Below the pieces are notes generated by a model. It did not search any database and was not told the origin of the DNA. It worked only from the letters and a program-made list of their open reading frames with translations. Of a stretch of 47,317 bases of DNA, positions 146 through 42,542 are shown piece by piece; position 1 is the stretch's first letter, and each line of letters begins with the position of its first letter. The stretch covers positions 1 to 47,317 of the forward strand of contig JBOEGD010000017.1 of NCBI GenBank assembly GCA_050633245.1. Direction: 5' to 3'. This DNA is from Calditrichia bacterium. GTDB lineage: Bacteria; Calditrichota; Calditrichia; RBG-13-44-9; J075. The position numbers and the translations under genes are program-made.

Positions 146-159
146 ATAATTTCATTTAT

Positions 160-18942: not shown

Positions 18943-19082
18943 ACAGTATTCCAAAATGGCTCAAACTCAATATTATCAATGCAAATACGTTAATTTATTA
19001 CAACTTACTCCGGTAATCCCCCCTGAAAATAGTGCTGTCGAGAAGTAGAATTTTCTTGTATAATTTATCAAGGAGATTCGTT

Positions 19083-19349
19083 ATGAAAAAGTCCCGATTT
19101 ACTGAAAGTCAAATCTTCAAAATTCTTAGACAAGCCGAAGGCGGAGCGCCTGTTGCTGAACTGTGTCGTGAACATAATATCAGCTCTGCGACCTTCTATA
19201 ACTGGCGTGCCAAGTTTGGTGGAATGGATGTATCCATGATTTCCCGTGTGAAAGAGCTTGAAGCCGAGAATGCCCGTTTGAAGAAGATGTATGCCGAGGT
19301 TCAGTTGCAAAACGATATTATTAAGGATGCGCTTGAAAAAAAGCGCTAA
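19083..19349 (+). CDS. IS3 transposase OrfA (HTH)
   Basis: AAGGAG SD; MKKSRFTESQI...LCREHNISSATFYNWRAKFGGM; -1 frameshift motif A7G at 19336-19343. Confidence 0.95.
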   Translation: MKKSRFTESQIFKILRQAEGGAPVAELCREHNISSATFYNWRAKFGGMDVSMISRVKELEAENARLKKMYAEVQLQNDIIKDALEKKR

Positions 19350-20173
19350 AACCGTCTGAAAGGAAGCAGATGGCAAAAGCCGCAGTCGCCTTGCATGGTG
19401 TAAGCATTCGTTTAGCCTGCAAGGCCTTTGGAGTTAGTGGCACCTGTTATCGTTACCAGCCGAAGCTCAAGGAAGAAAATGAGGTGATTGCCGACTGGTT
19501 GATCCGCTTAACCAGTAGCTATCGCAACTGGGGTTTTGGGTTATGCTTTCTATTCCTTCGGAATGTGAAAGGCTTCGAATGGAATCATAAGCGTGTGTAT
19601 CGGATTTATCGTGATTTGGAATTAAATCTACGCATAAAGCCTAAAAAGCGTCTGGTGCGTGACGTGCCTGATAAACTGGTTGTGCCTGAGCATATAAACC
19701 ATACCTAGTCAATGGACTTTATGCACGATCAACTTGAGGATAGGCGCTGCTATCGCGTCTTAAACATTATTGATGATTTTAACCGCGAAGGATTGGCTAT
19801 AGAAATAGACTTTTCGTTGCCGGCAGAACGAGTTATCCGCACGCTAAATCGGGTGATCGAATGGCGTGGTAAACCTGGGGCTATTCGTTGTGATAACGGG
19901 CCTGAATATGTTAGCGCCAAGCTGATGGAATGGGCAAAGAAGGAAGAAATTGAACTGCTTTATATTCAACCAGGCAAGCCCCAGCAAAATGCTTACATCG
20001 AACGATACAACCGAACGGTTCGATATGACTGGATGAATCAGAATATATTCGCTGGAATAAATCAAGTAAGGGAGCATTCTACACAGTGGCTCTGGCATTA
20101 CAACAATGAAAGACCAAACATGGCATTAGGCGGTATTACACCTGTGCAAAAACGCGCCGCTGCAGCGGCATAG
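19346..20173 (+). pseudogene. IS3 transposase OrfB (DDE) with in-frame nonsense codon
   Basis: Track ORFs 19370-19708 and 19712-20173 are in one frame. TAG at 19706-19708 replaces the conserved Trp of W-SMDF; the motifs DNGPE and [10 protein letters not shown] are present. Confidence 0.9.
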
Positions 20174-26345: not shown

Positions 26346-27425
26346 TTAATTATTTCTTACTCCGCTAACTATGACTAGCCTTTGAACTCCTTGTGAATAA
26401 TCTTGCCCAACAATAATTACCCGCTCGTCCTTTAAAGCTACTGATACAAATTCGTGATCTATGTTTTGTAATTCAGGATAGTTCCTCCAAGTTCTGCCAT
26501 TGAAATGCCAAACCATTCCGCGCTGGCCAACAATAAAGAGATCGTTGTGAGCTTGGCCACGGACTTTATTAGGAAAGGCTTCCAATTCGAATAGTTCCTG
26601 ACGTGGCGTAGAATTTTCCATAACGTTTTGCCAATAAATCTGTCTCCCCCCGACAATAATAAGAGAGTCATTGCCACAATACCATAAGCTCGATAGCTCA
26701 CCTTGATAGAAGTTACTATTGATTCCACCCTGTTCCCATACAATGCTCCAAGTTTCTTCCTTACCTTTTAGGAGAATGCTCGCGCCTCCTGTTGACTTTC
26801 TCCCACAAATCCAAATCGCTTCAGAATCAGGTGTACCGCCTACATCAGTTAAGCGAATATTTGTTAAGCGATCTGGTTCTTTCCAAATACTATTGCTATA
26901 AAAAAGCAGAAGCCCTTCTGCCCCAACGGAATAGATGTTTTGAAAAGAGTCACCCCAAATTGTAATAGCTATATCTAGAGAGTTGAGGTTACGTTGCCAA
27001 GAAAGTGGAGCATAAGCCCCCCCCTCCTGATGAAAAATGCTACCTGCGGCAAACCAAATATTAGTCTCATCTATTGCCCATACTCCCCGTGCACCAATTA
27101 AAGAATGTCCGGGTTCATCTTCTATTTGTTCAAAAGTCCAACCTGAACTTTTCCATCTCGCAAATCCATATGAAAAACTTTGCCCCAAAGAATCGCTAAA
27201 CGATAGTCTGCCTACAGCTAAAGCTTCCGATTCAGTTAAAAAAACTATATCGTTTAATGTTGTAGTTAGCGGCCCAAGCGTATCAATCTGCCAAACAAAA
27301 TTATGACTTGTTGTATCGACCTTGACATCAGGAGGTGGCGGAGGCGTTGTGTTTTTTGAACAGCTGCAGGCAACGAATATCAAAATCAAATAAAATGACA
27401 TAACAATATCACGCAACATCGGCAA
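26346..27425 (-). CDS. Lipoprotein with beta-propeller repeats (DTTSHNF.W family)
   Basis: Lipobox-like FVACSC, Pro-rich linker, repeats IWG....IY.VG..G...HFNG..W. Confidence 0.8.
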   Translation of the reverse strand: MPMLRDIVMSFYLILIFVACSCSKNTTPPPPPDVKVDTTSHNFVWQIDTLGPLTTTLNDIVFLTESEALAVGRLSFSDSLGQSFSYGFARWKSSGWTFEQIEDEPGHSLIGARGVWAIDETNIWFAAGSIFHQEGGAYAPLSWQRNLNSLDIAITIWGDSFQNIYSVGAEGLLLFYSNSIWKEPDRLTNIRLTDVGGTPDSEAIWICGRKSTGGASILLKGKEETWSIVWEQGGINSNFYQGELSSLWYCGNDSLIIVGGRQIYWQNVMENSTPRQELFELEAFPNKVRGQAHNDLFIVGQRGMVWHFNGRTWRNYPELQNIDHEFVSVALKDERVIIVGQDYSQGVQRLVIVSGVRNN

Positions 27426-27433
27426 AGCCCCTG

Positions 27434-27487
27434 TTGTTAATAGAGAATTGTTAATAGAGAATTGTTAATAGAGAATTGTTAATAGAG
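27434..27487. repeat. 14-bp tandem repeat, ~4 copies
   Basis: (TTGTTAATAGAGAA)x3 plus TTGTTAATAGAG, directly upstream of the lipoprotein start. Confidence 0.95.
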
Positions 27488-27526
27488 TGAATGAGGAGTA
27501 TTTAACACTACATATTTAATTGCTAA

Positions 27527-27560
27527 ATAAGCAAGAGGAATTTATAAGCAAGAGGAATTT
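27527..27560. repeat. 17-bp tandem duplication
   Basis: ATAAGCAAGAGGAATTT x2. Confidence 0.9.
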
Positions 27561-27745
27561 TTAGTAGCTGTTAACAACGACTACCAAGAAGTGGACTTCC
27601 CCAAGAAGGTAGGCAATCTGTTAGAGCTTTTGACTCTATTTTTCCAATTCGATCGATGTTAAATAGCCTACATGGATAGCGTATGTTACAGTATAATTAC
27701 ACTTCAGCGGAATTATACTTCAACTGTTGTGATTTTATCCAAATA

Positions 27746-28354
27746 TTAAACAAGTTCTAGATCCTTTCGATATGAAACAATCTCATCTGCCCCCTGCATT
27801 TTCTCAAAAATTCTATGCTGCCTTCGTCCGGAAATAGCCATATATCGGCTTGTACTTTCAAGTCGTTTATGTCCTAAATGAAACTGAACATCTTTTTGGG
27901 AAAATCCTGCATCCCCCATGTGCACGGCAATAGAATGCCTCAACACATGGGCATGGTGTAACTCTTTTGGGATACCCGCAATTGGAGCATACCGTTTGAT
28001 ATGCCAATCGATTGTCTTTCGGGAAATTGGATTCTTATTTCTGGATAAGAATAAAGGAATATTGAGGTCGCTTTCTATATCTCTAAGATAATATCCAAGC
28101 AAATAAGAAGTATCGGAGAAGAGCATATATTCCCTAGACTTACCATGTTTCAATCGCCAAATCTTAATTCTATTTCTCTCCCATTTTAGGTCTTTTAGCC
28201 TTAATAGGCCAACCTCTGAGGCTCGCAATCCATACTTATACATCATATCAAACATCACTCGATCACGTGGGCTTGTAATCTGTGCAAAAAGCCGTCTGAC
28301 TTGTTCTTGAGTCAGGTACTTCGTCTTTTCTTCAGTCTCTTGATAATGCCACAT
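27746..28354 (-). CDS. Small tyrosine recombinase, FimB/FimE-like (catalytic domain only)
   Basis: 202 aa; KYLTQEQV; GLRASE (R), RLKHG (K), HVLRHS (HxxR), LGH (H), TSRY (Y). No N-terminal arm or core-binding domain. Confidence 0.92.
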   Translation of the reverse strand: MWHYQETEEKTKYLTQEQVRRLFAQITSPRDRVMFDMMYKYGLRASEVGLLRLKDLKWERNRIKIWRLKHGKSREYMLFSDTSYLLGYYLRDIESDLNIPLFLSRNKNPISRKTIDWHIKRYAPIAGIPKELHHAHVLRHSIAVHMGDAGFSQKDVQFHLGHKRLESTSRYMAISGRRQHRIFEKMQGADEIVSYRKDLELV

Positions 28355-28361
28355 AGTCTTC

Positions 28362-28395
28362 CCAACTAGACATTTTAACTAAAGTGTCCAGTTCA
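28362..28395. other. Putative recombination site A (13-8-13)
   Basis: CCAACTAGACATT-TTAACTAA-AGTGTCCAGTTCA; 30/34 identical to the reverse complement of site B; 7 bp from the recombinase ATG. Confidence 0.85.
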
Positions 28396-28397
28396 AG

Positions 28398-28425
28398 ACC
28401 TTAGCATTATCAGAGATAAAGTCAA
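28398..28425 (-). promoter_or_regulatory. Putative sigma70-type promoter of the recombinase, inside the cassette
   Basis: Minus strand TTGACT-16 nt-TAAGGT with extended -10 TGc. The predicted start falls in the inner arm of site A. Confidence 0.5.
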
Positions 28426-28458
28426 TACTCACAGTAATAAATGCAGGGGGTATCTGCG

Positions 28459-29661
28459 ATGAAGAGAGTTTCAATCATAGGTTTAACTATTATCAGCCTG
28501 GTTCTTTTTCCAAGCTGTAGTAAGGACGGTAGCAGCAGTTCAAACGGAAATATTACCTTTACCCCCTCCCCTGCAAAAGGAGTGAGGTATCAAAACATCC
28601 GTCTTCAACTTTCCGAGGAAATACTCTCCGCAACCTGGAGTTCAAGCAATCCAGATATTGCCATTTACATCCGAAACACTTCCTCCTGGGGAGAATTCTC
28701 TTGTAATATGGAAGGAACTGTCACAATCCGTGCAGTTGGAGAAGATAAGTCTGCTGAGACCCAATTGGAAGTCATTCCCAATGGCACTTGGGAAGCCGTG
28801 CCACTGGTATTATCTGGTGCGTTAGACAACCTTAGTGATGTTCAATTTTTTGATGAAATGGCCGGTTGGGCTTGCGGCGGACTAAATGGCCATGCCTATT
28901 ACACTTCAGACGGAGGACAAACCTGGCAGGATCGTCTACCTGCAAGTTTAAATGCCGAATGGATTCATAACGTGTTTTTCCTTAATCAAAGCACCGGTTG
29001 GCTAACAGAGCTATCTGAGGATATATACAAGACAACTGATTCCGGGCTTACCTGGAACCTGCTCCCAAGCATCGGTAGCGGATTAATTAATGACATTTGC
29101 TTTCTCGACGAAAATATCGGAGTCATCGCAATGTCAGGTAGCCAAGATGGTATTCTAAGAACAACCAATGGAGGTAATACATGGACTCAGATCATTGCGG
29201 GTGCATTTTCAAAAATCTACTTCCTCGATTCAGAATATGGATGGGCTATTGAGTCTCGTAAAAATTACAGAACAACAGACGGTGGAGCCACATGGATCGA
29301 AGGCCCCAGAATTCATCCAAGTCCAAGAAGTGCATCACAACTTCATTTTGAAGACCGTAATTCTGGTTGGTTCATAAAATCGGGGAAAATATATACCACT
29401 ACAGACGGCGGTATTACGTATGAGGAAATGTCCTTAGATGGTTTCTCTCCATCTGTTAGCGGTGTATCCGGAATACTTAAACTGAATGACTCCGTCGGAT
29501 GGGCTTTGGTCGGTAACCAATATTATCAAACTGCAGATGGGTTTAAAACGGCGGCCTATCAGTTGTTTAACCATACAACGTCAACTCAAGGAATGGGTTT
29601 TGCCAGAAGTAGACCATATGTGTTTACACAGCGTGGGATTTTGTTTAATGATCGGTATTAA
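28459..29661 (+). CDS. Lipoprotein with Ig-like (Big_2-like) domain and YCF48/BNR propeller
   Basis: MKRVSIIGLTIISLVLFPSC lipobox (ATG 28459; the track starts at 28441); TWSSSNPDIA; repeated F.D...GW and T.DGG.TW. Confidence 0.85.
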   Translation: MKRVSIIGLTIISLVLFPSCSKDGSSSSNGNITFTPSPAKGVRYQNIRLQLSEEILSATWSSSNPDIAIYIRNTSSWGEFSCNMEGTVTIRAVGEDKSAETQLEVIPNGTWEAVPLVLSGALDNLSDVQFFDEMAGWACGGLNGHAYYTSDGGQTWQDRLPASLNAEWIHNVFFLNQSTGWLTELSEDIYKTTDSGLTWNLLPSIGSGLINDICFLDENIGVIAMSGSQDGILRTTNGGNTWTQIIAGAFSKIYFLDSEYGWAIESRKNYRTTDGGATWIEGPRIHPSPRSASQLHFEDRNSGWFIKSGKIYTTTDGGITYEEMSLDGFSPSVSGVSGILKLNDSVGWALVGNQYYQTADGFKTAAYQLFNHTTSTQGMGFARSRPYVFTQRGILFNDRY

Positions 29662-29690
29662 AGTTGATTAACCATATGGGGACAATAGTA

Positions 29691-29726
29691 TTGACATTTC
29701 AACTAAAAGGGTATAGTTTTACTATA
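29691..29726 (+). promoter_or_regulatory. hicBA promoter with overlapping palindromic operator
   Basis: TTGACA-17-TAGTTT; palindrome TATAGT-TTT-ACTATA at 29712-29726. Confidence 0.6.
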
Positions 29727-29743
29727 GAAGTAAGTCAATACTT

Positions 29744-29977
29744 ATGGAGATCAACTTGAAAGACTTTGCCTATACCGTTGTGTTTGAGCCTGCCGAAGAA
29801 GGAGGCTACCTTGCCCATGTACCGGCTTTGAACGGTATTACCACAGAAGGTGAGACTTTGGAAGAAGCCAAGAATATGGCTATCGATGCGATACGAGGTT
29901 ATATCGCCACTCTGATACAGGAAGGGTTACCAATTCCTTTTGAGCATTCAACTGAGAAGTTAGCTGTTTCTATTTAA
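29744..29977 (+). CDS. hicB: HicB-family antitoxin (short form)
   Basis: YTVVFEPAEEGGYLAHVPALNGITTEGETLEEA...DAI...L...G.PIP. Confidence 0.92.
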   Translation: MEINLKDFAYTVVFEPAEEGGYLAHVPALNGITTEGETLEEAKNMAIDAIRGYIATLIQEGLPIPFEHSTEKLAVSI

Positions 29978-30210
29978 TGTCTCCTCAACTACCCAATATT
30001 ACTTCGAAACAAATGATCCGGGCGCTTAAGCGTGCCGGATTTGTCTTTAAACGTCAATCAGGCAGTCATCAAATGTATATCCACCCTGACCGGCCTGGAA
30101 ACATTGTTGTTGTTCCGTTTCATAATCGGGATTTGAAGAAAGGGACTTTGAAGAGCATTTTGAGGCAGGCCGGGTTGTCGGTGGAGGAGTTGATAGATAT
30201 CCTGACATAA
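29977..30210 (+). CDS. hicA: HicA-family mRNA interferase toxin
   Basis: IRALKRAGF...RQSGSH......VVVPFHNRDLKKGTLKSILRQAG; TAATG coupling with hicB. Confidence 0.93.
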   Translation: MSPQLPNITSKQMIRALKRAGFVFKRQSGSHQMYIHPDRPGNIVVVPFHNRDLKKGTLKSILRQAGLSVEELIDILT

Positions 30211-30494
30211 TATCAAAAGTTACTTCCAAAAGATAGCACCAAGAATGTAAACAAACGATGGTTTTAATCACAGCCAGTTAATATGCATTCTCAAGTTCGC
30301 TAGAATTGAATTTTATTCTTCAAAAAATAGGACAGTAAGTACTTTACAAAATCGAGATTCGTTCAATAATCCCTCAACTCTAAAACTTCTAACCTCAACC
30401 AACAATCAAGCATAAACACCTGTTTTGAATATACTGAACAAATTGGGTATGTCATCAAAACCCGATGTTAGTTTGGTATTGCTCGTCAGAAGTC

Positions 30495-31367
30495 TTACAC
30501 TTGCTCCAGTGTTTTGGCAATTTCATCCGAAATAACAACAAATCCTTTTTTTGTTGGGTGAAGTTCATTTGCCCACCAAGTTTTATATTTTTTATCGTTG
30601 GGTAATTTTCCTCTAAGGTTTACATACGTTACCAGTTCAAACCCACGTATTCTATTTAGTGTTGCAAGCATGTCATTAAACTGATTGATGAGTTCTTCAA
30701 CAAGATCGGTTCGGTACTGAAGCGGCTTATCAGGGTATCCTTTTTTTCTAAACCCAGGTTGAAGCCAAGGACCAGGCAATATCCATCCACCTCCCCAGAA
30801 GCCCCTCCCATCGGGCACCGCAAAATCATACCCATGAACTAGAATCGGGCATTTAGTTCCAAAATGCTTTTCACATAATGTATTGATTCTGCTTATCAAA
30901 GTTATATAGCAATATCTCAGTCGCTTATTGATAATTGCGGACATAATTTCCGGACTGAGTCCGGGTTTAGGTGACTTTGCATGATTCAATAAAATAGTAA
31001 ACTCGTCTCCCGCAATATCATTGCCACCAGCTGACAACAGAACTGCTTTGGGTGATTCATCTCGCCTAAGTAATCGTTCTAAAATCCGAATAAATCCTTT
31101 AATCTGAGATGAATCATACGCCATAGATTCAGCTTTATCGCCCTTATTAGCGGAATGTTCTATTCTATAATTATGTTTATCTTCGAGAATATCAAGCACA
31201 TCAGAACCCGGATAATCAAACCACGAATCCCCTTCTGCAATTAGAATCCCTTTGGGCTCATCATTACGAGAAATTTTTTTTCGAATCCCGGCACGATTTT
31301 TCCAATGTTTTTCTGCCAGATCTTTTCCCATAATAATCGCATCATTGAGGCTTTCATTTTTTGACAA
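30495..31367 (-). CDS. SGNH/GDSL-family hydrolase
   Basis: AEGDSWF (block I), SAGGND (block III), HGYD, ANELHP (block V); GGGAG SD before TTG. Confidence 0.85.
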   Translation of the reverse strand: MSKNESLNDAIIMGKDLAEKHWKNRAGIRKKISRNDEPKGILIAEGDSWFDYPGSDVLDILEDKHNYRIEHSANKGDKAESMAYDSSQIKGFIRILERLLRRDESPKAVLLSAGGNDIAGDEFTILLNHAKSPKPGLSPEIMSAIINKRLRYCYITLISRINTLCEKHFGTKCPILVHGYDFAVPDGRGFWGGGWILPGPWLQPGFRKKGYPDKPLQYRTDLVEELINQFNDMLATLNRIRGFELVTYVNLRGKLPNDKKYKTWWANELHPTKKGFVVISDEIAKTLEQV

Positions 31368-31395
31368 TGCAAAACTCCCTTAGTTTATAGTTAAG

Positions 31396-31602
31396 CTAAG
31401 TCGTATGACACTCATTTGAACAATAGTAACAGCCATTCGTCTGTTTATAATATTTCTTTGCTTCTTTTACAGCTTGTTGACAATTTGAAAAGTCACCCAA
31501 ATAGATTCTGTTATGCGTTTCTGGCATAAAAGAACAACCCGTTGTATGAACTTCATGATCTCCGTTAGATTGAGCATTTTTGTTAACGTAATATCTAGCC
31601 AT
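31396..31602 (-). CDS. Small Cys/His-rich hypothetical protein (68 aa)
   Basis: GGAGA SD; YYVN...Q.NGDHEVH...C...LG.F..C..AV..AK...NGCYYC...CH pattern, likely metal-binding. Confidence 0.8.
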   Translation of the reverse strand: MARYYVNKNAQSNGDHEVHTTGCSFMPETHNRIYLGDFSNCQQAVKEAKKYYKQTNGCYYCSNECHTT

Positions 31603-32007
31603 GCTTTTTCTCCATAGTTAAAGGATTTACGTACCTAAATTTGATTAGTGATAAAGAATATGATAGTAAAAACAAGATTAAATAATCCATATCAACCACA
31701 TGAATGATAAATACAATCATTCAGTGGACGGCGGATTACACGGTCAAATTTCGGGGAGTATTTCTATTTAATGAAAAAAAATTTGGAAATGCAATATTGT
31801 GAAAAGAATAACTCATCCTCAATAGCATTTTAGAACATAGGATAAATCTGAAATACGATGAAATGGTTATTTGTCTAATTTTTTGAGGGTTAGGATGAAA
31901 TAAAAAGGCAGTAATATTAAAATCTAATCCAAGAGCACATTTTTTTGTAACTAGAAATTCAAGGTATGCAAAATGACTAATAATTTAGCTACAAATATCC
32001 GATAGTC

Positions 32008-32041
32008 TGAACTGGACACTTTAGTTAAAGTGTCCAGTTCA
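32008..32041. other. Putative recombination site B (perfect 13-8-13 palindrome)
   Basis: TGAACTGGACACT-TTAGTTAA-AGTGTCCAGTTCA; symmetry extends over 32006-32043; the spacer is the reverse complement of that of site A. Confidence 0.88.
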
Positions 32042-32505
32042 GATAATATAAATATTAACCTCCTCAATAATCAACGAAAATATCCACATTATATAGGCGT
32101 CTTTCATCAACAAAAACAGTCAATTTATTTATACACTCTTTTTGCCTCACCGACCGGAGTATTAAAATTGTCTATGACCATCTATCTAAGGCGGTACGTT
32201 AACGGGACGTGAATCCGCATCTATAACCGGCACAATAAACAACCTCAGGATTCGGATCAGGATTGGGCAGCGTATCAGTCAGAAGAACAGCAAGCCAGAC
32301 CGACCGGTCATGAAAAAGATATTTTCATAGGAAGCTCCTCTTGATAGAGTAAAAAATGAATTGAGCTTCAAATTATTTTTTCGAGGTAAACGATTTTTAC
32401 ATAAACGTCAATGCTAGGAAGAATCGAGGTAAAAAGCACTTTTGCCAGCAATAAATTTGAGTTAATTTTTCAGCTCACTCACAAAAGGGAAATGGGAGAA
32501 TTGAA

Positions 32506-33072
32506 ATGGCAAAAGAAGACCTTGGGCCAATCTATAGTGAACTTTTGGGTTATATGAGTCAATCACCAGAACCCCAATCAATGACTGATTTTTTAGCAGA
32601 TAAGGCCGGAGAATCAGTATGGAAACAATTAAACAAAGTAATAGAAATGCTGGAGACTGAGTTAGAGATTGACCTTAGTAGATTTAAAATCGTTTCATAT
32701 CATGGTACAGGATCAACAACTTATGTATATCTTTATTCCTACCGGCAAAAATTAGGTGGTTTAATTGCCTTTTTACATAGAAAATACTTTAAAAGCGAAC
32801 CGCCGCCCTTCTCGGATATGCCTCCTACAACTATCATAAACCAAACCCAAAGCCAGCATGTTGACATTCAGCTAATGCTAGATCTCCGAGGAGCAATTGA
32901 AAAGGCACTTCCGCAGACAAAGAAAGGTAGCCCTGAGTACGGATTTCTGACAAAAATAAAAGAAACGATGAGCACTGCGGATACTGGTATAAGTGTGATG
33001 AGCAAAGTCCTTAGAGCCGCAAACGGAAGTGGACTATCACTCGAAAAAGTAAAAGACCTTCTCGGTCTCTGA
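32506..33072 (+). CDS. Hypothetical protein
   Basis: 188-aa ORF with GGGAGA SD; no recognised motif. Confidence 0.7.
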   Translation: MAKEDLGPIYSELLGYMSQSPEPQSMTDFLADKAGESVWKQLNKVIEMLETELEIDLSRFKIVSYHGTGSTTYVYLYSYRQKLGGLIAFLHRKYFKSEPPPFSDMPPTTIINQTQSQHVDIQLMLDLRGAIEKALPQTKKGSPEYGFLTKIKETMSTADTGISVMSKVLRAANGSGLSLEKVKDLLGL

Positions 33073-33251
33073 CCTGCAGAATAAACATGAAAGCGCTTTC
33101 GCTCAGGAAAACTGTTCAGTATCTTTTGATGTAACATACAAAAAATCTCCCCAAACATATTTTGCAAAGGTCATGAAGGATCTTTGGATTTCCGCTGTAT
33201 TTGTGCTTACCCTAATACAGCTGTAGCGATTTGTCCTATCCATAATGAGGA

Positions 33252-33669
33252 GTGAATAATTATGAGGAGCCGGAAAATCCGGTAGTTAAGTTTTATGAAA
33301 TGAGAAAATGCGGATTTTACAAAAGAGGTGAGTATAAACCGCTGTTAGGCGATATCGGTGAAATATTAGAGAACCTTAATAAATGGGTAAAATCCAAAAG
33401 GAATAAATCACTTGGAACTTGTCCATTCAAGCCGATTCCAAATGAAGATCTGCGATATGCCCTTCGTACCGCTATTGAACATGACGCTGGAATCGGTGAT
33501 TGCGTTATTTCCACCTTTAATAACACTGCTTTTTATTGGAGGGCCAGTAATTTACTTAAATCCGAGCGCTTCTGTAAATAGCCGGTCAAGTCCAAAATTT
33601 TTAGAAATTACTTATAGAGCCATATTATGTTTTTATCACAAACCACTAATTTATAATAGCTACAGGTGA
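33252..33669 (+). pseudogene. Probable decayed or truncated hypothetical gene
   Basis: The 109-aa ORF 33252-33581 overlaps a second frame (..GGPVIYLNPSASVN..) that runs to the helicase start, suggesting a frameshift. Confidence 0.4.
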
Positions 33670-36600
33670 GAATGTCAGAGCAATCAATGCTACCGACTCC
33701 AGAGATACCATCGAATCCACGTTCTGAGATTGTTAACTCCTACCTTTCGACAATCGAGGAAAGTTTTCGTTCTGGGCGTCCTCAAATCAAACTTATCAAT
33801 TACGGAACGGGTTCGGGCAAAACCCATCAATTTTTTGAAGCGGTCTGTGAATCGATCAGAAAACATGAGAATGTTCATATTATAGGTATATATGTAGCTC
33901 CACTTAGGGAACATTTGCAGGCCCCTGCTACGACATCAGAGAATAAAGATATTCCTTTCTATACTGTCAATTCATTGCAAATGAAGACTACTGATACATT
34001 GTTTAAAAAGTACACTTCATGGTTAGATAAAATTCTTGGGAATAGAAAATTCTGGAATGATAAACTAATAAATTCTCCAAATAGTGGTTTTGAAGAAGCT
34101 AGGTCATCTTTGGCAAGAGTCCCAAGAATCATTGGGCAATTAGAGTTTATGAAAAGAACAGATTTTGGAGATGAGGAATTCAGAGAGAAATTTCGAATTA
34201 AGGCAATACGTGAGCTGAATAATTTGATAGAAAAATTTTTGGACTTTCTTATCAAAAATCTGCCTGATGAGACCACATGGCCTGATGAATGTTTAAAGCT
34301 CACTAAAGTATTTTATCCTCTCTATCTATTGCGGGAAAAGCCTGGGATCATAATGTTAACATATGACAAATTTGAGACCAAAATTCCATTCTTCATTCAC
34401 AATGGTTTTAAATGGATTAAAAAAAATGATCATCTAGATCAATTTATTCGACAACAGTCTGATGGAAACAAAAGGTTCATACTCGCTTTTGACGAACAGG
34501 AAGATGGTTATCAAATTGTTTTAAATCGCAAAATAGACATTATCTCTCCGCGGATGCTTGCAATAAATAATGCTCTCTCTTCAATCAGCCGTGAATTTTC
34601 TATTCTATTTTCAGAGAAAGAAAAGGTATACAGAGAGTTCCTGGAATATGCAGACTTGAATCCAGGTGTATATCATGAGTTAGCAACACACCTGGAGAAA
34701 GAAAAGTCTATTGACGACAGAATATCGAAATATGTAAACGTCTTTCGAGAGCTTACTCAAAGTGAAGGAAATTCCATAGATTTTTTGAGGCAAGTGAGTC
34801 AAATCAGCAAACATATATCCGCTTCAATTAATGATGTTTTAGATGTTTGTGAGACTCTTGGGGATCGTAATCCAGTAGATTTAGACTTTGGTATGCTTTC
34901 CAGAGTATTTTCAAAATTTGAAAATAATCGGAGTTTGTTAATCCCTCGGCGACTTTACTCGAAAATCGCCGATGAGTTAATGAGCATTTTTTCGCACAAC
35001 AATTTGTTCATTTACAATATTGAACCTTTAAGAAGTTTGTTTTTAGCAAAATCAGCAGGTGGACATGTTTACATCACAGATGAACCTACTGCGGATAGCG
35101 CTTCTGTCGCTGAGTTAATTTATGCAATATTCGTGATACGCTTGCAAATTGAACTTATAATTGAATTTTTGTCTAACGTCCTTAACGCAGAAGATAGTCA
35201 GTCTCGGTCATTAGACATTTGGTCAAAACAAATAACGAAAATCCAAAAAGCTAGTGAAGAAATATCAACTGAGACTAGACCTCCCAAATATGTAAATCGA
35301 GAATATGTCTACAAAAGCTATAAGTCAATTATTAACATAATGGAGATTTCGCGCTATCAGCATCCTACCAATGACTTAGTTAATCACACATTTCGGGAAG
35401 TATCGATTGGTAGCACAGCAATCTTAACCTCCCCTGAACATAAGCTGCACTCAATATTAGAAAATGGCAGTAATGTTCTATTTCTAATCTCCGCAACGGG
35501 GGGAATCACTGGTGACCTCAGCACTAGTTACGATATGAGGTACTTGGAGGATATTTTAAGAGATGATTCGGGTAAGAGCTCATTTAACCAAATGATTGAA
35601 ACAGAGTTGCAACTATGTGAGCAAATCAGAAAATACCGTAAATCAACGAAGCATTTATCTGTAGTATTTTTTGATGCTAACCAATCTACTTACCCAAACG
35701 TACGTACTGAACTAGTTGCCGAGCAATTTTATAATGGATTGCTAAATGGATTTATTGAGTCAATGACTGGGGATGGGAGGTGGTTTGGGGCCTATAAAAA
35801 GCATGAATTACAAAACTTTTTTCGTTTTTTATTCTTGCTGTTTGAGGACGACACTATTCAAAACATGATCGCTTTCACTCAAACCCTGCGTTGGATAAAG
35901 GAGTCAATAAAATATTGTCGCTTAAGGCGTCATGCCAATTTCAAGTTTGAACCTTCACCAGACCATCCAAACATTTGCTATTTAAAGTTAGAACATAAGA
36001 GCTTTGCGAGTAACCTACGAGTTAAGGTAATCTTGTATGATGCCTCTTTTAACGCAGAGTACTATTCGGATGATTCTGGAAAAACCTATCTGGATGAATT
36101 AGTTGAGTGTGATGGGGAAAAGATCTTATTTGTTTCCGCCTACCAATCTGCCGCTAAAGGATTGAATCCAATTATTAAGTATAAGGGTGATGCTCAGAAA
36201 GATTTTGATGCGCTTGCTTTGCTAATGGACAGCTACTATACCGCTATGGGCCCCTTACTCAATCAGCCAAAGGATGCTGGAAAAGCAACCACACTTTACC
36301 ATTTTGCCTTGATGAAAAATATTGTCCATTTAGGTGATACCAGTGTCGAAATTAAGGACTTTAATAAATACATAAACAATCCTGATGCAGAATCTTTTCG
36401 TGTATTACAACATCAGATTTTACTTGGTAAGGGGATTCTGCAAGCAATTGGGAGAACGGAGCGGAGAGATTTTCCGAATCAAGTTTCAAAGATATTTATT
36501 AATGAAGAGACGCGCAAAAATTTGGTCAATTTTTATAGATACCTTAACAGAAATGAACCCAACGAAATACGAAAACTTTCAGTAAATAACTACGAAGTAT

Positions 36601-37619
36601 ATCTCGCACTACAGAAAGACGAAAAGAGCCGGTGTATCCCTAAATATGAGGAACACGAGTACGATGAGGTGGCTTCATATTATGCTCTACAGGAATTTAG
36701 GGAGAAAATGCTTGAAGAGATTCAACACTTCCATGAAGGCAAATCCAACGCTAAAATTATTGATGCTTGGAAATTGTTGCGGAATCCCGTTGTCTTCAGT
36801 GATCCTGCAGCCTTTCTAAAAAAAATCGAAGCATCAAAGTTATTTCCTGCTGACTTCATCGAATCATTATTTTACTGCCGCCCAAGCCAACTAAGATTTA
36901 CACCTTATTTAGCAACGATAACGGATGGTGGAAGAAAGATTGATATTATAAGCGATAGCGTGAATGGGGACAAAACATATAAATATATGCAGAGACTCTA
37001 CCCCAATTTTCTCAAAACAGCGTCCGCAGGCTTTGATACTTATGGAGAAGAATTACAACATCTCAATCAGTCATCCGACGCAATTGTTAGATTATACAGG
37101 AAACTCATTCCAGAACCAGATATATTTAACACGTACATTCCACGACCGCACTTTTTTTACGATGTTTTGCTCCCTTCACTTGCAGAAAACTTTGTCGAAG
37201 GATGGATCAAAAACGAAATATTCGAAGGCAATGAAGATAGAACTATAAAATCTTTATACAAATTTGAACAGGTACGGAATTTTAATAAATACAATAAACT
37301 GTATGAGCTATTTGATTTGTATTATACAAAAGAGTCTACACTTTTTTGTATTGATGTAAAAGCATGGAGTAGAATTAGCGGGAACAGGCTCTCCTCTAAA
37401 GCTCTGAAAAAATCTCAAAAAAAGCTCGATAAAATCGCTACCGACTATCCAGCTTTTGGTAATGTCCGGGGCCTACTCCTGAACTTATACGCGCCAATTG
37501 AAACAAATCTGCAGCACTCACCAAATTTGTTTTCCGGCAATTTGATCTATACAGATAGTTCTCGCTGTCCAATTGCTTCTACCATTCTAAAAGATTTCTT
37601 GTTTTGTAAGGAGATATGA
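33666..37619 (+). CDS. SF2 helicase fused to C-terminal PD-(D/E)xK nuclease, DdmD-like
   Basis: Walker A GTGSGKT, YVAPLRE (Ia), LTYDK, AFDEQE (II), ISATGG (III), SAYQSAAKGLN (V), QAIGRTER (VI); C-terminal ELFDLY...IDVKAW. 1317 aa. Confidence 0.8.
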   Translation: MRMSEQSMLPTPEIPSNPRSEIVNSYLSTIEESFRSGRPQIKLINYGTGSGKTHQFFEAVCESIRKHENVHIIGIYVAPLREHLQAPATTSENKDIPFYTVNSLQMKTTDTLFKKYTSWLDKILGNRKFWNDKLINSPNSGFEEARSSLARVPRIIGQLEFMKRTDFGDEEFREKFRIKAIRELNNLIEKFLDFLIKNLPDETTWPDECLKLTKVFYPLYLLREKPGIIMLTYDKFETKIPFFIHNGFKWIKKNDHLDQFIRQQSDGNKRFILAFDEQEDGYQIVLNRKIDIISPRMLAINNALSSISREFSILFSEKEKVYREFLEYADLNPGVYHELATHLEKEKSIDDRISKYVNVFRELTQSEGNSIDFLRQVSQISKHISASINDVLDVCETLGDRNPVDLDFGMLSRVFSKFENNRSLLIPRRLYSKIADELMSIFSHNNLFIYNIEPLRSLFLAKSAGGHVYITDEPTADSASVAELIYAIFVIRLQIELIIEFLSNVLNAEDSQSRSLDIWSKQITKIQKASEEISTETRPPKYVNREYVYKSYKSIINIMEISRYQHPTNDLVNHTFREVSIGSTAILTSPEHKLHSILENGSNVLFLISATGGITGDLSTSYDMRYLEDILRDDSGKSSFNQMIETELQLCEQIRKYRKSTKHLSVVFFDANQSTYPNVRTELVAEQFYNGLLNGFIESMTGDGRWFGAYKKHELQNFFRFLFLLFEDDTIQNMIAFTQTLRWIKESIKYCRLRRHANFKFEPSPDHPNICYLKLEHKSFASNLRVKVILYDASFNAEYYSDDSGKTYLDELVECDGEKILFVSAYQSAAKGLNPIIKYKGDAQKDFDALALLMDSYYTAMGPLLNQPKDAGKATTLYHFALMKNIVHLGDTSVEIKDFNKYINNPDAESFRVLQHQILLGKGILQAIGRTERRDFPNQVSKIFINEETRKNLVNFYRYLNRNEPNEIRKLSVNNYEVYLALQKDEKSRCIPKYEEHEYDEVASYYALQEFREKMLEEIQHFHEGKSNAKIIDAWKLLRNPVVFSDPAAFLKKIEASKLFPADFIESLFYCRPSQLRFTPYLATITDGGRKIDIISDSVNGDKTYKYMQRLYPNFLKTASAGFDTYGEELQHLNQSSDAIVRLYRKLIPEPDIFNTYIPRPHFFYDVLLPSLAENFVEGWIKNEIFEGNEDRTIKSLYKFEQVRNFNKYNKLYELFDLYYTKESTLFCIDVKAWSRISGNRLSSKALKKSQKKLDKIATDYPAFGNVRGLLLNLYAPIETNLQHSPNLFSGNLIYTDSSRCPIASTILKDFLFCKEI

Positions 37620-37620
37620 A

Positions 37621-39921
37621 ATGTTTAGCCTGAACCATACCCCCTCAAGCACATCTCGAACGAATCAACTCATAATTAATGAATCGACATCAGAAGTTGC
37701 TGAAAAACTCGTTCAATATCTTTTCAAAAAAGGTAAAGGGATAGAACATTTTAGCATTAATGGTTGGTTTGCTAAAGAGGAATACTCGAAAAAAAACTTT
37801 TATATAATGCGTCATCAACGCATAAAAGATGAAATTAGAAGACGACTCGCTGAATACGGCGAAGCTCCTATTCTTTCTGAAATTCAATATTTCTTTTCTC
37901 GTTCGAACGGTCAAAACCTTGTTTTTTATTTATCACCCAGTCGGCAACATTCGGGCTGGAAAAAACTCTTCTCTGATCAATGGCAAAAAAGTAATCGTGA
38001 AAGAATTTTTAATTTGATTTTTAAGGTCCATCTTATTTCTCAGGAACTGCCTGTAGAGACACTAAATGGGTTCGAAGAATTACTCTTTATACATTCAGCA
38101 AAGTCAAATAAGAAAGGAGACGTTCTATACGTTTGGGGACAAAATTTATTTGTGAATTATAACCACTTTAACGTATTGACGTTAACTCTCAACCGGAAAT
38201 TTCGCAAGTTTTTGTCATCGGACACATATGGTAGTTTGGATGAAGATGACCTCGGTGAACTTATGGTTTTCGAAAGCAGGAAATACCATCACCATCGAGA
38301 CGAGGATGCAAGGCGTAAAAATGATATTTTCTTTATGCGCTTTGAGTCGGGAGATGAAGAATACAAGAAATTCAAAAAAACTCAGCTCTACTACTACCAA
38401 ACCCTCATGACCAAACTGCAAGAGTTCTTAAGTGAGTGTAAAATAGCCTTCGATGCACTTCCTTATACCGCTACTCATTTCTTGGAAAACCCATTTATCA
38501 AGAATATCGAGTCCGTTGAATCCCTGAAGGTTATTAATAATACTGGATTCGACCTTACAATTGAAGATCAGCAATTTCTTCAAAACTTTTTATCACTCCA
38601 GGGTGTAGTGCAGGTAACCTTACATAATGCGGGCAAAAGTATTAGTAGCTATGAGAAAATGGAGGATGAAGATGAAGGGTGCTGGAAAATCACTGAATTA
38701 GTGCCTTGGGATGAAGTTGAGTTGAACCAGCAGACAAATTACTTGGTATTAAATCGACTACTGGATGAAGAGATTGGATCAATGGCATATCAAAAAGAAG
38801 ATGGCCTATGGTATCCGTCGAATAAGTTAAAGAACGAACAGACTGTTGACTTTTACACAAGAATAAAGAGCAAATATAATTACCTTAAGACTGGGAAATT
38901 TATTAGTACACAGGGAGTTAATTTAGATAAGTTTTTAACCGTTGGAAGCACAAAGTCATCCTTGCCAGTCTTATCTTTTAGTGAACCCCAAATCCGTCAA
39001 GATGACTTTTACAACGATATAAAACCTTTGGCTAAAGGTAAACATTTAAGTGTTAGCGAATCGATTGCCAGCTATTCCAGAGAACAATCCGATCCTGACA
39101 AATGGAATATGTTTCTCAAGAAACATAAGATTAAGATTTCCCCTGAGTATCAGAAAGTGCTTATAGAGCTTGGTATCAAAAATTGGATTCGTGAGAGTCT
39201 CTGTAATCATGTAGCAGGCTTACCTATTTCGACTCAAACTTTCGATGAAAAAAGCTTTTACTCAATCTATGTGCGAAGTCCACGAAAGCAAGATACCCGG
39301 GCTGTTGCCGTAGAATTTGTTTACAAAGATGGTGCGATCTTTATTAGACAAGTCATAAGTGAGTTAAGGCAAATTCAGGAAAAGTTTAAGTTTCTAAAAA
39401 CTCGAAGAAACTCGGACACATTAGTTGACAACCAGCAATATTTTGTAGATGCTACAGACAAATTGTATGTTAGCTGCTACACCGATGACTATTTCACACC
39501 TACCTTGATTGGCAGAGATGGTATTTTGGACGAGATGAAGAGTGGAACATTAAAAGTGAACAGACAGGTCCGGGATAATAACAGTAGCAGAATTCTCCCC
39601 CTTGTCACTCACTATAACGAAGAAATGAGGCCAATTAATCGAATTCGAAAACTGATTTGCTTTGACTTAGCCAATGATTCTTTTATCCAGTATTTTGTCC
39701 CGCCTGGTAAGAGCATTGAAGCGCGGGTTAAAAAAGGATTTAGAGTTTATCACATGATCGGAAAATCGTTCACCAATGAGCCTATTTTAACCTCTGAACT
39801 CATAGAGCACCCAATCACAAGTTTACACTTTAATACGCTGACCCACAACATTTTAAGAATTAGTGACAATAGTCAGTCGTCTCTTCTACAAAAAGTGGCA
39901 AGAGTGCTTGTTGAGAATTGA
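37621..39921 (+). CDS. Argonaute-like protein, DdmE-like (MID-type guide pocket, probably no slicer activity)
   Basis: 766 aa coupled to the helicase (AAGGAG SD, 1-nt gap). FYTRIK...ISTQGVN...KVLIELGIK resembles the Ago MID Y-K-Q-K motif; no recognisable DEDX tetrad. Confidence 0.65.
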   Translation: MFSLNHTPSSTSRTNQLIINESTSEVAEKLVQYLFKKGKGIEHFSINGWFAKEEYSKKNFYIMRHQRIKDEIRRRLAEYGEAPILSEIQYFFSRSNGQNLVFYLSPSRQHSGWKKLFSDQWQKSNRERIFNLIFKVHLISQELPVETLNGFEELLFIHSAKSNKKGDVLYVWGQNLFVNYNHFNVLTLTLNRKFRKFLSSDTYGSLDEDDLGELMVFESRKYHHHRDEDARRKNDIFFMRFESGDEEYKKFKKTQLYYYQTLMTKLQEFLSECKIAFDALPYTATHFLENPFIKNIESVESLKVINNTGFDLTIEDQQFLQNFLSLQGVVQVTLHNAGKSISSYEKMEDEDEGCWKITELVPWDEVELNQQTNYLVLNRLLDEEIGSMAYQKEDGLWYPSNKLKNEQTVDFYTRIKSKYNYLKTGKFISTQGVNLDKFLTVGSTKSSLPVLSFSEPQIRQDDFYNDIKPLAKGKHLSVSESIASYSREQSDPDKWNMFLKKHKIKISPEYQKVLIELGIKNWIRESLCNHVAGLPISTQTFDEKSFYSIYVRSPRKQDTRAVAVEFVYKDGAIFIRQVISELRQIQEKFKFLKTRRNSDTLVDNQQYFVDATDKLYVSCYTDDYFTPTLIGRDGILDEMKSGTLKVNRQVRDNNSSRILPLVTHYNEEMRPINRIRKLICFDLANDSFIQYFVPPGKSIEARVKKGFRVYHMIGKSFTNEPILTSELIEHPITSLHFNTLTHNILRISDNSQSSLLQKVARVLVEN

Positions 39922-40331: not shown

Positions 40332-42542
40332 ATGATTAAAAAAATAAAAAGAATAAAAAATTTGGATCTGTTTTCAGATTACACTTGGGATAATAATCTA
40401 TCTGACTTTTCAAGATATAATCTAATATATGGGTGGAATGGAACTGGGAAAACTACCCTTTCAAAATTATTTGCATATTTAGAAGAAGGTTCCTTAAATG
40501 AGTTTCCTCATCTTGAGTATGAAATAGAACACGAAGATGGCAACTACAATACTCATAAGAGCTTTGATTGCAAAGTTCGTGTATTTAACCAAGATTATAT
40601 ACAAAGAAATGTTCAACTTGTCGATGGCGTTGCCAGTCCAATTTTTATCCTTGGGGAAGAGAACAAAGAAATAGCCAACCAAATTCTTTCCGATGAAAAA
40701 GTTTTATTCAGCCTTCAAACTGAACAAGTCTCATTAATAGAAGACAGAGAAAAAATTATTAAAGAAAAAAAGAAAATATTTACTGATGTTGCAAAAGTTA
40801 TTGGTGCAAACCTAGTTGGATTTTCTACAAGAAATTACAGAGCTCCTAATGCCGTAAAGGATTTTGATGCTTTACCTGAATGTGAGATTTTAAGTGAAGA
40901 AATTGTCGCAAAAAAACAAGCAATAATAAAACAAGAACAAAAAGATAACATCTCAAAGATTGAATTAGATGAAGATGCTAATGTAAGTGATATCTGTAAC
41001 GAGATTAAAGCTATCTGTGGAGAAACTGTCGAGATTAATGTGATTGCTAAACTTACTGGTAATCAAACTATTTCCGAGTGGGTTGAGCAAGGCTTGTCCT
41101 TTCATACTCCCAATAGTAAAGAATGTGAATTTTGTGGTTCTAATATTCCACAAGGAAGAATAGAAACTTTGCTAGGACATTTCAATGAAGCCGATAAGAA
41201 ATTGAAAGAAAAGATTGATAGTAAAATAGTTGTCCTACGAGAAGCTATTCAAAAAGTTAATGACATCCAATTTCCTAATAAAGCCCAGTTCAATAATGAC
41301 TTACAAACTCTCTTTATTTCGAGCGCAGTAACATATGATCAAGAAAAAAAGAATTATTGTGCTGAGTTATCATCGATGATTGAGATTCTCAATACAAAAA
41401 AACAAAAAACCACAGAAGCTTTGCCATTTGTAGAGTCTTTCAACAATAATTTTGAGGCTTCAGTAAATTCTATAAACAATCTTATTGATCAGCACAATCA
41501 AACAAATGATAACTTTCAATCAGAAAAAGACAAAGCCATTGAGTCTCTAAAGCAACACTACTTAAGTGAAGTATTTGAAGATGTAAAAGCTATTGATGCG
41601 AAATTAGAGGAGCTTAATCAGAATATTATAAAACTTGAGAATGGGGATAGCACTGATTATTTTATTGGTATCTTAAACTTAAGAAAGAGGATTGCAACTA
41701 ATAAAAGTAAGATATCATCTGCTCATAAAGCATGCGATAAAATAAATGAGCAACTAAAAACTTTTTTGGGAAGAAGTGAAATCCTTTTTGAGGTGTCTCC
41801 GGAAGGTGGTTATGTTGTAAAAAGAAATGGAGTAGTAGCAAATAATTTAAGTGAGGGCGAGAAGACAGCAATAGCTTTTGTATATTTTGTAGTACATCTC
41901 AATGATCAGGACTTTGATATTGATAATGGTATTGTTGTAATAGATGACCCAATTTCAAGTTTAGATTCTAATTCATTATTTCAGGCGTTTGCCTTTCTGA
42001 AAAAGTCTGTTAAAGATGCAAAACAAATATTTATTTTTACACATAACTTTAGCTTTCTAAAACTGCTTTTAAATTGGCTTAATAGAACTAGAGGACATAA
42101 ATATTTCATGATTAACAACAAGCACTCTGCTACTGGTAACAGAGAGGCATTTATTGCTGCGCTTGATAAAGAGTTAAGAAGTCATGAAAGTGAATATCAT
42201 TATTTATTTAAAGTCCTATATACTTTCAAAAAAGATGGAAATGAAAACATTTCTTCTGTCTACCATCTCCCCAATATTGCAAGGAAGGTCCTTGATACTT
42301 TTTTAATGTTTAGAGTTCCAACAGGAGAAAGCCCATATAAGAAACTGGAAAAGCTAACTTTTGATGAAGTCAAAAAAACGGCTATATACAAGTTTACAAA
42401 TGATCAGTCGCATATTACTGGAGATGGGTTCGATCCGTCATTAGTACCTGAAACACAAAAAAATGTTGAGTATCTTCTCGAAATGATGGAGACGGTATTC
42501 CCCGAACATTATAAGATTCTTGAGGAACAGTTTTCAGACTGA
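40332..42542 (+). CDS. RloC-like (AAA_13) ABC ATPase with zinc hook and C-terminal HEPN-like domain
   Basis: GWNGTGKTT, VFNQDY, coiled coils with CEFC, LSEGEK, IVVIDDPISSLD, FTHN, SEYHYLF, NIARKVLDTF...NDQSH. Confidence 0.85.
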   Translation: MIKKIKRIKNLDLFSDYTWDNNLSDFSRYNLIYGWNGTGKTTLSKLFAYLEEGSLNEFPHLEYEIEHEDGNYNTHKSFDCKVRVFNQDYIQRNVQLVDGVASPIFILGEENKEIANQILSDEKVLFSLQTEQVSLIEDREKIIKEKKKIFTDVAKVIGANLVGFSTRNYRAPNAVKDFDALPECEILSEEIVAKKQAIIKQEQKDNISKIELDEDANVSDICNEIKAICGETVEINVIAKLTGNQTISEWVEQGLSFHTPNSKECEFCGSNIPQGRIETLLGHFNEADKKLKEKIDSKIVVLREAIQKVNDIQFPNKAQFNNDLQTLFISSAVTYDQEKKNYCAELSSMIEILNTKKQKTTEALPFVESFNNNFEASVNSINNLIDQHNQTNDNFQSEKDKAIESLKQHYLSEVFEDVKAIDAKLEELNQNIIKLENGDSTDYFIGILNLRKRIATNKSKISSAHKACDKINEQLKTFLGRSEILFEVSPEGGYVVKRNGVVANNLSEGEKTAIAFVYFVVHLNDQDFDIDNGIVVIDDPISSLDSNSLFQAFAFLKKSVKDAKQIFIFTHNFSFLKLLLNWLNRTRGHKYFMINNKHSATGNREAFIAALDKELRSHESEYHYLFKVLYTFKKDGNENISSVYHLPNIARKVLDTFLMFRVPTGESPYKKLEKLTFDEVKKTAIYKFTNDQSHITGDGFDPSLVPETQKNVEYLLEMMETVFPEHYKILEEQFSD

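Follow-up and report, generated by a model that had tools for sequence, protein, structure and literature searches.

Does the DNA between two inverted sites beside a short tyrosine recombinase gene of a Calditrichia bacterium turn over, and which genes would its inversion switch? The locus is on contig JBOEGD010000017.1 (assembly GCA_050633245.1), of which positions 1 to 47,317 were analyzed; this whole stretch is referred to here as the window. The segment in question, the cassette, is a 3.65-kb block (28379-32024) that carries five genes and is bounded by inverted sites A and B, with the recombinase gene located outside it. Beyond site B lie genes for a helicase-nuclease and an Argonaute-like protein that resemble the DdmDE defense pair. 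A sequence-only reading of this DNA had proposed that a promoter within the cassette drives the recombinase and that inversion re-aims it toward these defense genes, giving phase-variable immunity. We favor, at a probability of roughly 0.4, a different reading, in which 28379-32024 is an invertible cassette that switches the transcription of the recombinase and the inner gene set that is read, with the defense genes being autonomous. Inversion as such, judging from the sites and the recombinase, is somewhat more probable than its absence.

Two inverted sites flank a five-gene cassette beside a recombinase gene

An inverton is expected to have an inverted-repeat pair adjoining its recombinase gene, and a search of the window for inverted repeats returns such a pair. 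The 32-nt arms of this repeat, I1 (28364-28395 and 32008-32039), are 94% complementary and 3612 nt apart. They fall within two palindromic sites, A and B (Table 1), with the center of site B being the reverse complement of that of site A. Aligned as inverted copies, the sites agree at 30 of 32 positions, compared with 28 of 32 in direct alignment, and the two center bases make the whole difference. The inner 22 nt are identical in the inverted alignment. A strict site pattern, consisting of an 8-nt arm, TTTAGnnAAA, and a complementary arm, matches the window at A and B only, placing site A at 28366-28391 with the core TTTAACTAAA and with arms that are complementary at 6 of 8 positions. Across the whole genome (6.35 Mb), the 15-nt arm has exactly three copies, each of them at site A or B, and a 16-mer arm allowed up to 3 mismatches has three matches in the window versus 0.59 expected. 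At this tolerance, no further arms or accessory repeats of the site were found in the window beyond A and B.

The catalytic residues of the recombinase (R44, K69, H136, R139, H162, and Y171) are conserved in alignment A1 of the family. The A1 profile covers residues 103-282 of the 292-aa XerC-like recombinase 4a8e, with no core-binding domain. The outer arm of site A touches the ribosome-binding region of the gene, the ATG of which (28354) is 9 nt away from the edge of that arm. As the ATG is only 24 nt from the center of the site, almost any promoter of the recombinase must be cassette DNA. The nearest proteins, P0002 and P0003, are from Logan contigs and have 62-64% identity. Within the phylum, a close relative of the recombinase is missing from all 85 other genomes, and a genome-contig search with the single protein confirmed none.

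The interior of the cassette comprises two convergent gene sets. The gene for a BNR lipoprotein and the hicBA toxin-antitoxin pair are on the plus strand, and the genes for a 68-aa Cys-rich protein and a GDSL hydrolase are on the minus strand. We propose that the catalytic-domain-only, Xer-like recombinase would flip the cassette by crossover in the central region shared by A and B. The recombinase promoter would be supplied by cassette DNA and would therefore change with orientation.

Promoter-like elements in and around the cassette

The element on which the sequence-only reading relied, TTGACT and TAAGGT separated by a 16-nt spacer with a TG extension, is present as described on the minus strand, running from 28425 to 28398. 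It is located within the repeat-bounded segment and would fire through site A. A start site ~7 nt downstream of TAAGGT would fall in the right arm of this site, near 28391, and autorepression by way of this overlap, as also proposed, is plausible.

To score promoter-like elements, a matrix was trained by expectation-maximization on the other contigs of the genome, and promoter-oriented intergenic DNA was compared with non-promoter-oriented intergenic DNA. A best score of at least 12 is reached in 24.2% of promoter-oriented regions versus 2.4% of non-promoter-oriented regions. The element upstream of the recombinase scores 5.08, with a -35 part of +7.5 and a -10 part of -1.73. Scores of at least 5.08 occur at 4.83 per kb of strand in the window versus 4.88 in composition-matched random sequence, and best-per-region scores of 4 to 6 are seen in 11% of promoter-oriented versus 16% of non-promoter-oriented regions. 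The -10 consensus of the genome is TAtaTT, and a G at position 5, as in TAAGGT, is found in 2 of 83 such sites. A generic sigma-70 scan leaves the element unlisted (8/12 matches, under threshold). By these measures it is indistinguishable from chance. The claim that it is the only promoter-like element for the recombinase thus survives in part: it has the top matrix score upstream of the gene, but at a value that arises at chance rate.

The loose pattern TTGACn-N16-18-TAnnnT, which the element fits, has 84 promoter-oriented and 5 non-promoter-oriented intergenic matches in the genome, an enrichment indicating that the organism uses -35/-10 promoters. The window is AT-rich and has 8 matches to the pattern versus 7.57 expected, 5 of the 8 being upstream of genes. 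An outward-firing promoter inside the segment is therefore at most a candidate, with its score at the chance rate and its pattern enriched 84 to 5.

Other elements found with the matrix are listed in Table 1, and all promoters named here are predictions. One of them, 2 nt outside site B, would fire into the cassette (12.56), and the strongest of the region (13.74) is upstream of the DdmD-like helicase-nuclease gene. For the BNR lipoprotein gene, no plus-strand promoter-like element was found within 28355-28470 (best, 1.42), and none scoring at least 9 was found between 26381 and 29691. The generic scan of 27400-34000 lists 18 promoter-like sites, compared with 20.1 ± 4.4 in shuffles.

These elements suggest the following wiring. 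As assembled, the weak TTGACT-TAAGGT element would serve the recombinase, while the fixed element outside site B would read inward and reach the 68-aa/GDSL set. After inversion, the outside element would instead reach the otherwise promoterless BNR lipoprotein gene and then hicBA, and the recombinase would be left with nothing better, the best element facing it in the inverted state scoring 1.94 (within ~450 nt). The self-limiting latch suggested in the sequence-only reading is uncontradicted by this result. The DdmDE-like pair, for its part, would probably be expressed independently of cassette orientation, via the element at 33097-33125.

Related recombinase loci

Relatives of the recombinase were collected by alignment search from 79 genome loci, 80 metagenome loci, and 14 viral loci, 173 in all. 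The closest relative with DNA, L010, has 55% identity and belongs to the same 32-row clade (Shimodaira-Hasegawa-like approximate likelihood ratio test support, 97%). In L010, a cassette 3.2 kb long and flanked by 46-nt inverted repeats immediately precedes the recombinase gene. This cassette also has convergent inner gene sets, and its flanking genes likewise point away from it. Its cargo consists of a receiver domain, a serine resolvase, and a peroxiredoxin. A promoter-like element inside it, TTGTAA-17-TATAAT (5849-5877), is aimed through the near site at the recombinase.

Of 167 related loci, 5 have the strict site pattern upstream of the recombinase gene at a distance of at most 400 nt, with 0 matches in the other 1.6 Mb of those loci, and a relaxed pattern raises the count to 8 of 167. 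The arms also resemble one another, reading CTGCACC in Eisenbacteria loci and CTGGACAC in the window. Two loci of the Eisenbacteria type, L031 (6064-6263) and L128 (9740-9930), each have two palindromic sites in inverted orientation, ~170 bp apart and with the core TTTAGCGAAA, directly upstream of the recombinase gene. These site pairs look like promoter-sized invertible switches; generic promoter scans of both small switches found nothing. In L128, the recombinase gene is followed by a gene for an Ig-domain protein.

L053, L054 (9766-14262), L016, L021, L025, and L048 have compact transposons of the Tn3 family, 3.7-4.5 kb long and ending in inverted repeats of 34-46 nt. These transposons carry a ~170-190-aa recombinase of the same family as that of the window, likely a resolvase, and one Acetobacteraceae chromosome has two identical copies of such a transposon. 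In the tree, the Tn3-linked relatives form a clade separate from the window recombinase. A Tn3 resolvase would be expected to adjoin a Tn3 DDE transposase and the terminal inverted repeats of the transposon, but no such transposase turned up in the window at E ≤ 1 (best E, 0.26) or at E ≤ 1e-5 in the genome.

Points against an invertible cassette, and a static alternative

Several observations weigh against the favored reading. As for the fixed outside promoter, scores of at least 12.56 arise at 0.148 per kb of strand in the window versus 0.171 in composition-matched random sequence, and each promoter call is therefore a candidate only. In the ~2.9 kb of chosen strand that was scanned, ~0.5 chance matches scoring at least 12 are expected, and three were seen. 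The matrix was trained on other contigs, while this contig has 38.2% G+C compared with ~45% for the genome. Furthermore, the 68-aa gene, 400 nt from site B, comes with a candidate promoter of its own (9.18), so that it does not need the outside element. As for the sites, their orientation depends on just the two center bases. Among relatives, L011, the second close one with DNA, has no inverted-repeat partner in 4.7 kb upstream. Inverted repeats of at least 24 nt occur in 7 of 160 related loci, and 5 of those 7 are Tn3 transposon ends. Finally, a Tn3 transposase is encoded beside the recombinase in 21 of 173 related loci, which indicates that part of the wider family are resolvases.

Some of these points would fit a cassette that does not invert at any appreciable rate, with sites that are leftovers or an operator plus a spare copy and a recombinase that is decayed or was the resolvase of a former mobile element. 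The single assembly shows one orientation only, and the Tn3 linkage of part of the family and the missing partner repeat of L011 point in the same direction. In addition, 6 of the 8 loci that match the relaxed site pattern have one site only by that criterion, and the outer arm of site A has diverged. We nonetheless regard a static cassette as unlikely. Against it stand the missing Tn3 transposase, the separate clade, and the intact catalytic residues. Site B is a perfect palindrome, and the inverted identity of the inner 22 nt of A and B would be improbable for decaying DNA.

Two other candidates were rejected: attL/attR ends of an integrated element, since the centers differ in direct alignment and the recombinase is outside the sites, and an integron, since an extra domain in the recombinase and an array are both missing.

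Downstream genes include a distant DdmDE-like pair

The 188-aa protein encoded beyond site B belongs to a conserved uncharacterized family and has no match in Pfam, PADLOC, NCBIfam, or PHROG. The 109-aa open reading frame (ORF) that follows is probably a remnant of another defense-candidate gene, as only the N-terminal part of 328-386-position profiles is matched; four in-frame stops precede 33666.

For the 1317-aa helicase-nuclease, a helicase part is suggested by the weak DEAD match and by Atlas leads. A model of the C-terminal 618 aa (predicted local distance difference test [pLDDT] score, 75.2) has 20 matches in the PDB at E ≤ 0.001, all of them DdmD chains (best, 8u3k_F at 1.1e-7), followed by McrC and restriction endonucleases. 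D518 and D531-V-K533, a D...D-x-K motif, are invariant in 23 sequences. The 766-aa product of the next gene gave a model with a pLDDT of 64.3 that is poor at the C terminus, and its Atlas leads are Piwi/Argonaute. The top PDB matches are Vibrio cholerae DdmE (9bgk_E at 5.5e-8, and 9ezy_B) and then prokaryotic Argonautes, with template modeling scores of only ~0.26. Neither protein has a PADLOC match at E ≤ 0.01 (whether PADLOC 2.0.0 holds DdmDE models was not checked), a PDB match by phmmer or profile search, or a Pfam match beyond the weak DEAD hit. A DdmD helicase with a C-terminal nuclease is thus recognizable at the fold level only and an adjacent Argonaute-fold partner is predicted, while sequence models recognize neither. 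The naming of the pair as DdmDE-like in the sequence-only reading stands in the sense of a distant, model-based resemblance of folds.

Relatives of the two proteins (P0122-P0360) have 50-64% identity and are mostly from filamentous cyanobacteria (Nostoc, Microcoleus, Planktothrix, and others). Adjacent locus tags suggest that they too are paired, and they are annotated only as hypothetical or as DEAD/DEAH helicase. The pair, widespread in these cyanobacteria, seems to represent a distant DdmDE branch that has no name yet. The Ago-like gene is found in 0 of 85 other genomes of the phylum, an absence which suggests that the module was probably acquired horizontally; no relative of the protein was found in viral contigs or plasmids. 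Next to the pair are genes for an AAA_13 ATPase (40332-42542, plus strand; PADLOC candidate PDC-S06, E 2.2e-243) and for a 548-aa large serine recombinase of the XisF/Ccr-like type (42585-44231, minus strand). As these adjoin it, the DdmDE-like pair sits in a small defense island with a possible integration gene.

Table 1. Coordinates in the window and supporting evidence for the features of the locus
Feature	Coordinates	Strand	Evidence
Tyrosine recombinase, 202 aa, catalytic domain only	27746-28354	-	PF00589, E 3.4e-30, residues 12-174
Site A, imperfect palindrome, center AC (28378-28379)	28364-28395		Repeat search
TTGACT, 16-nt spacer ending in TGC, TAAGGT	28398-28425	-	Read from the sequence
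BNR/Ycf48-like lipoprotein gene	28459-29661	+	PF14870, E 1.7e-11; protein start MKRVSIIG...C
Promoter-like TTGACA-17-TAGTTT of hicBA	29691-29719	+	Matrix 12.37
hicB	29744-29977	+	PF15919, E 4.2e-8
hicA, toxin-antitoxin pair with hicB	29977-30210	+	PF07927, E 2.5e-24
GDSL-type hydrolase gene	30495-31367	-	PF00657, E 3.8e-6
68-aa Cys-rich protein, phrog_4298	31396-31602	-	phrog_4298, E 9.4e-26, full length
Promoter-like element upstream of 68-aa gene, within cassette	31834-31863	-	Matrix 9.18
Site B, perfect 18-nt arms, center GT (32024-32025)	32006-32043		Repeat I7, 100% complementary, 18+2+18
Promoter-like TTGATT-18-TATATT, 2 nt outside site B, firing into cassette	32045-32074	-	Matrix 12.56; generic scan 9/12; background 0.148 per kb of strand
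188-aa protein, conserved uncharacterized family	32506-33072	+	291 cluster representatives at E ≤ 0.001
Promoter-like TTTCGC-17-TATCTT, upstream of remnant and DdmD-like gene	33097-33125	+	Matrix 13.74, strongest of region; background 0.074 per kb of strand
109-aa ORF, probable remnant	33252-33581	+	PDC-M18A, E 1.5e-11, profile positions 6-56 of 339; phrog_24371, positions 13-89 of 386
1317-aa DdmD-like helicase-nuclease	33666-37619	+	Fold match; weak DEAD match, residues 44-86
766-aa DdmE-like (Argonaute-fold) protein	37621-39921	+	Fold match; start 2 nt after helicase stop

Proposed re-aiming of a promoter onto the defense genes

In the model put forward in the sequence-only reading, the TTGACT-TAAGGT element is the recombinase promoter, and inversion both removes it, as a latch, and makes it drive the plus-strand genes beyond site B, so that the DdmDE-like system becomes phase variable. 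The geometry holds. In silico inversion of 28379-32024 brings the element beside site B, pointing toward the plus-strand genes, and the ORFs at 32506, 33252, 33666, and 37621 are indeed all on the plus strand, with ~1.6 kb from site B to the helicase gene at 33666. No plus-strand terminator-like site was found from site B to 33269, and the element of L010, aimed at its own recombinase, is a parallel. The element is also the best candidate upstream of the recombinase, with a strong -35 part and the enriched pattern noted above, and the flipped state has no better element that faces the recombinase.

Against this stand the chance-level score and the rare G of the -10 part. Moreover, in the flipped state the element would be head-on to the 12.56 element outside site B, with start sites ~35 nt apart, and transcription from it would cross 460 nt of spacer and meet the unrelated 188-aa gene first, with the gene remnant also in the way, while the DdmD-like gene has its own 13.74 element. 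Re-aiming onto the defense genes is thus weakly founded, as the claimed promoter looks poor and the defense genes appear to have a better one, and the phase-variable immunity proposed on this basis is not supported. Nor does the arrangement recur in the related recombinase loci, for which conserved synteny of recombinase, site, and DdmDE had been suggested as a check. DdmDE-like genes accompany the recombinase in 0 of 173 loci, and tblastn of the window proteins against these loci (1.77 Mb) matched only HicB in L121 and HicA in L078, with nothing related to the helicase, the Ago-like protein, or the AAA_13 ATPase. Within the phylum, neither the Ago-like gene nor a close recombinase relative is found in any of the 85 other genomes. 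We consider this model quite improbable.

A broader version carries equally little weight with us. It would hold that the window recombinase represents an undescribed, phylum-spanning family of catalytic-domain-only, Xer-like invertases, which act at arm-TTTAGnnAAA-arm sites and have their own promoter on the flipped DNA. The switches would be promoter sized in Eisenbacteria, and in this genome and one of the Deferribacteres they would be gene cassettes. At the present locus, a flip would shut down the recombinase, as a latch, and direct transcription to the defense island, namely to the 188-aa gene and, by read-through, to the DdmDE-like pair.

Comparison with known systems

An invertible cassette, as we favor it, is of a kind already known, that of tyrosine-recombinase invertons and gene-sized invertible elements. 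The recombinase resembles FimB/FimE in being ~200 aa long and catalytic domain only, with an intact R-K-H-R-H-Y set and a gene beside an inverted-repeat segment. It also aligns over its full length to the NCBIfam tyrosine-type DNA invertase model NF007370 (positions 7-195 of 200). However, it is far below the curated cutoffs (68.3 versus 221 bits for NF007370 and 57.3 versus 222 for NF007371). Whereas fimS of Escherichia coli is ~0.3 kb, the window segment has 3.65 kb and five genes and is not promoter sized, and its sites are 36-38-nt palindromes with a TTTAGnnAAA core.

In the G segment of phage Mu, convergent inner gene sets are read from a fixed outside promoter, with inversion by the serine recombinase Gin. 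The cassette shares this layout, the outside promoter here being a matrix prediction. As described in passages of one report, a gene-sized inversion next to Tsr16 in Bacteroides fragilis switches an operon (PMC11761130). The likeness, as far as those passages go, consists of one or more genes between inverted repeats, a recombinase outside, and an orientation that decides transcription (PMC11761130). The difference from both Tsr16 and Mu G is that, here, inversion is deduced from sequence.

Passages on TnpI of Tn4430 describe core sites with symmetrical arms and a 4-bp asymmetric spacer that sets orientation, with inverted minimal cores giving inversion products (PMC2847244). The window shares with TnpI and its IRS, as those passages present them, a site directly upstream of the recombinase gene and symmetrical arms around a short asymmetric center (PMC2847244). 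Related short recombinases are indeed found in Tn3 transposons (L053, DDE_Tnp_Tn3, E 1.2e-133). Unlike TnpI, however, the window recombinase has no Tn3 transposase in window or genome, is in a separate clade, and lacks detectable accessory direct repeats.

Among Xer proteins, the best sequence matches with solved structures are 4a8e (E 1.6e-34) and XerD 1a0p (E 1.8e-28), and the NCBIfam XerA model matches at E 1.1e-33. In contrast to Xer recombinases, the protein has no N-terminal core-binding domain, falls below every equivalog cutoff (117 versus 220), and does not occupy a single, dif-like site on the chromosome. A further model is offered by dif modules, which are known from Acinetobacter plasmids and often carry toxin-antitoxin pairs. 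In this model, the cassette is cargo that, bounded by inversely oriented recombination sites, is moved from site to site, and inversion is a side reaction; the unrelated cargo of the window and L010, the toxin-antitoxin pair, the HicB gene beside the L121 recombinase, and an AT-rich contig with other mobile genes (IS3 pieces and the large serine recombinase) would fit, but with just two sites the genome has neither an array nor an empty target, the cassette has a dedicated recombinase encoded next to it whereas dif modules rely on XerCD of the host, and no second cargo copy is known, which makes a movable module very doubtful. The L121 HicB gene (124-309, minus strand), 58% identical to that of the window, is directly upstream of and divergent from the related recombinase gene.

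Like DdmDE of V. cholerae, the downstream pair combines a large helicase bearing a PD-(D/E)xK-type nuclease at its C terminus with an Argonaute-fold protein whose gene follows in tight linkage. It differs in having no sequence-level match, with 10-15% identity in structural alignments, and in having mostly cyanobacterial relatives. The window proteins are also longer (1317 and 766 aa) than the matched chains (1099-1190 and 569-713 aa).

Surroundings of the locus

The contig has 38.2% G+C, compared with ~45-46% in the other large contigs of the assembly, and the value drops to 32-36% across 31.5-46.5 kb of the window. A foreign island, a fragment of a plasmid, or mis-binning of the contig could account for this. 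At 19032-20173, three ORFs (HTH_Tnp_1, HTH_21, and rve) are the pieces of a split IS3-type transposase. Perfect tandem repeats are found in the gap beyond the 3' end of the recombinase gene, at 27434-27487 (about four copies of a 14-nt unit) and 27527-27560 (two copies of a 17-nt unit). An Rfam search of 27300-33800 gave, as its sole match, a spurious microRNA model on the site B palindrome, and no recognized RNA family was found by Rfam in the 460 nt beyond site B.

Implications

Phase-variable expression is known for restriction-modification systems and capsules. We found nothing in the literature joining "DdmDE" with "phase variation," and no description of the recombinase clade or the site type, although the searches were aimed at neither of the latter two. 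A latch that sends transcription into the defense island would, if true, be a bet-hedging switch for an Argonaute-type defense system, and a link between a DdmDE-like system and phase variation would be new; the evidence here speaks against that link. The value of the locus lies also in the proposed wiring, with a fixed outside promoter that would read inward, and in the recognition of a widespread, distant DdmDE-like pair. The site motif can be used for finding further switches. If the cassette does flip, it would represent recombinase-driven phase variation in a little-studied phylum of the Fibrobacteres-Chlorobi-Bacteroidetes group.

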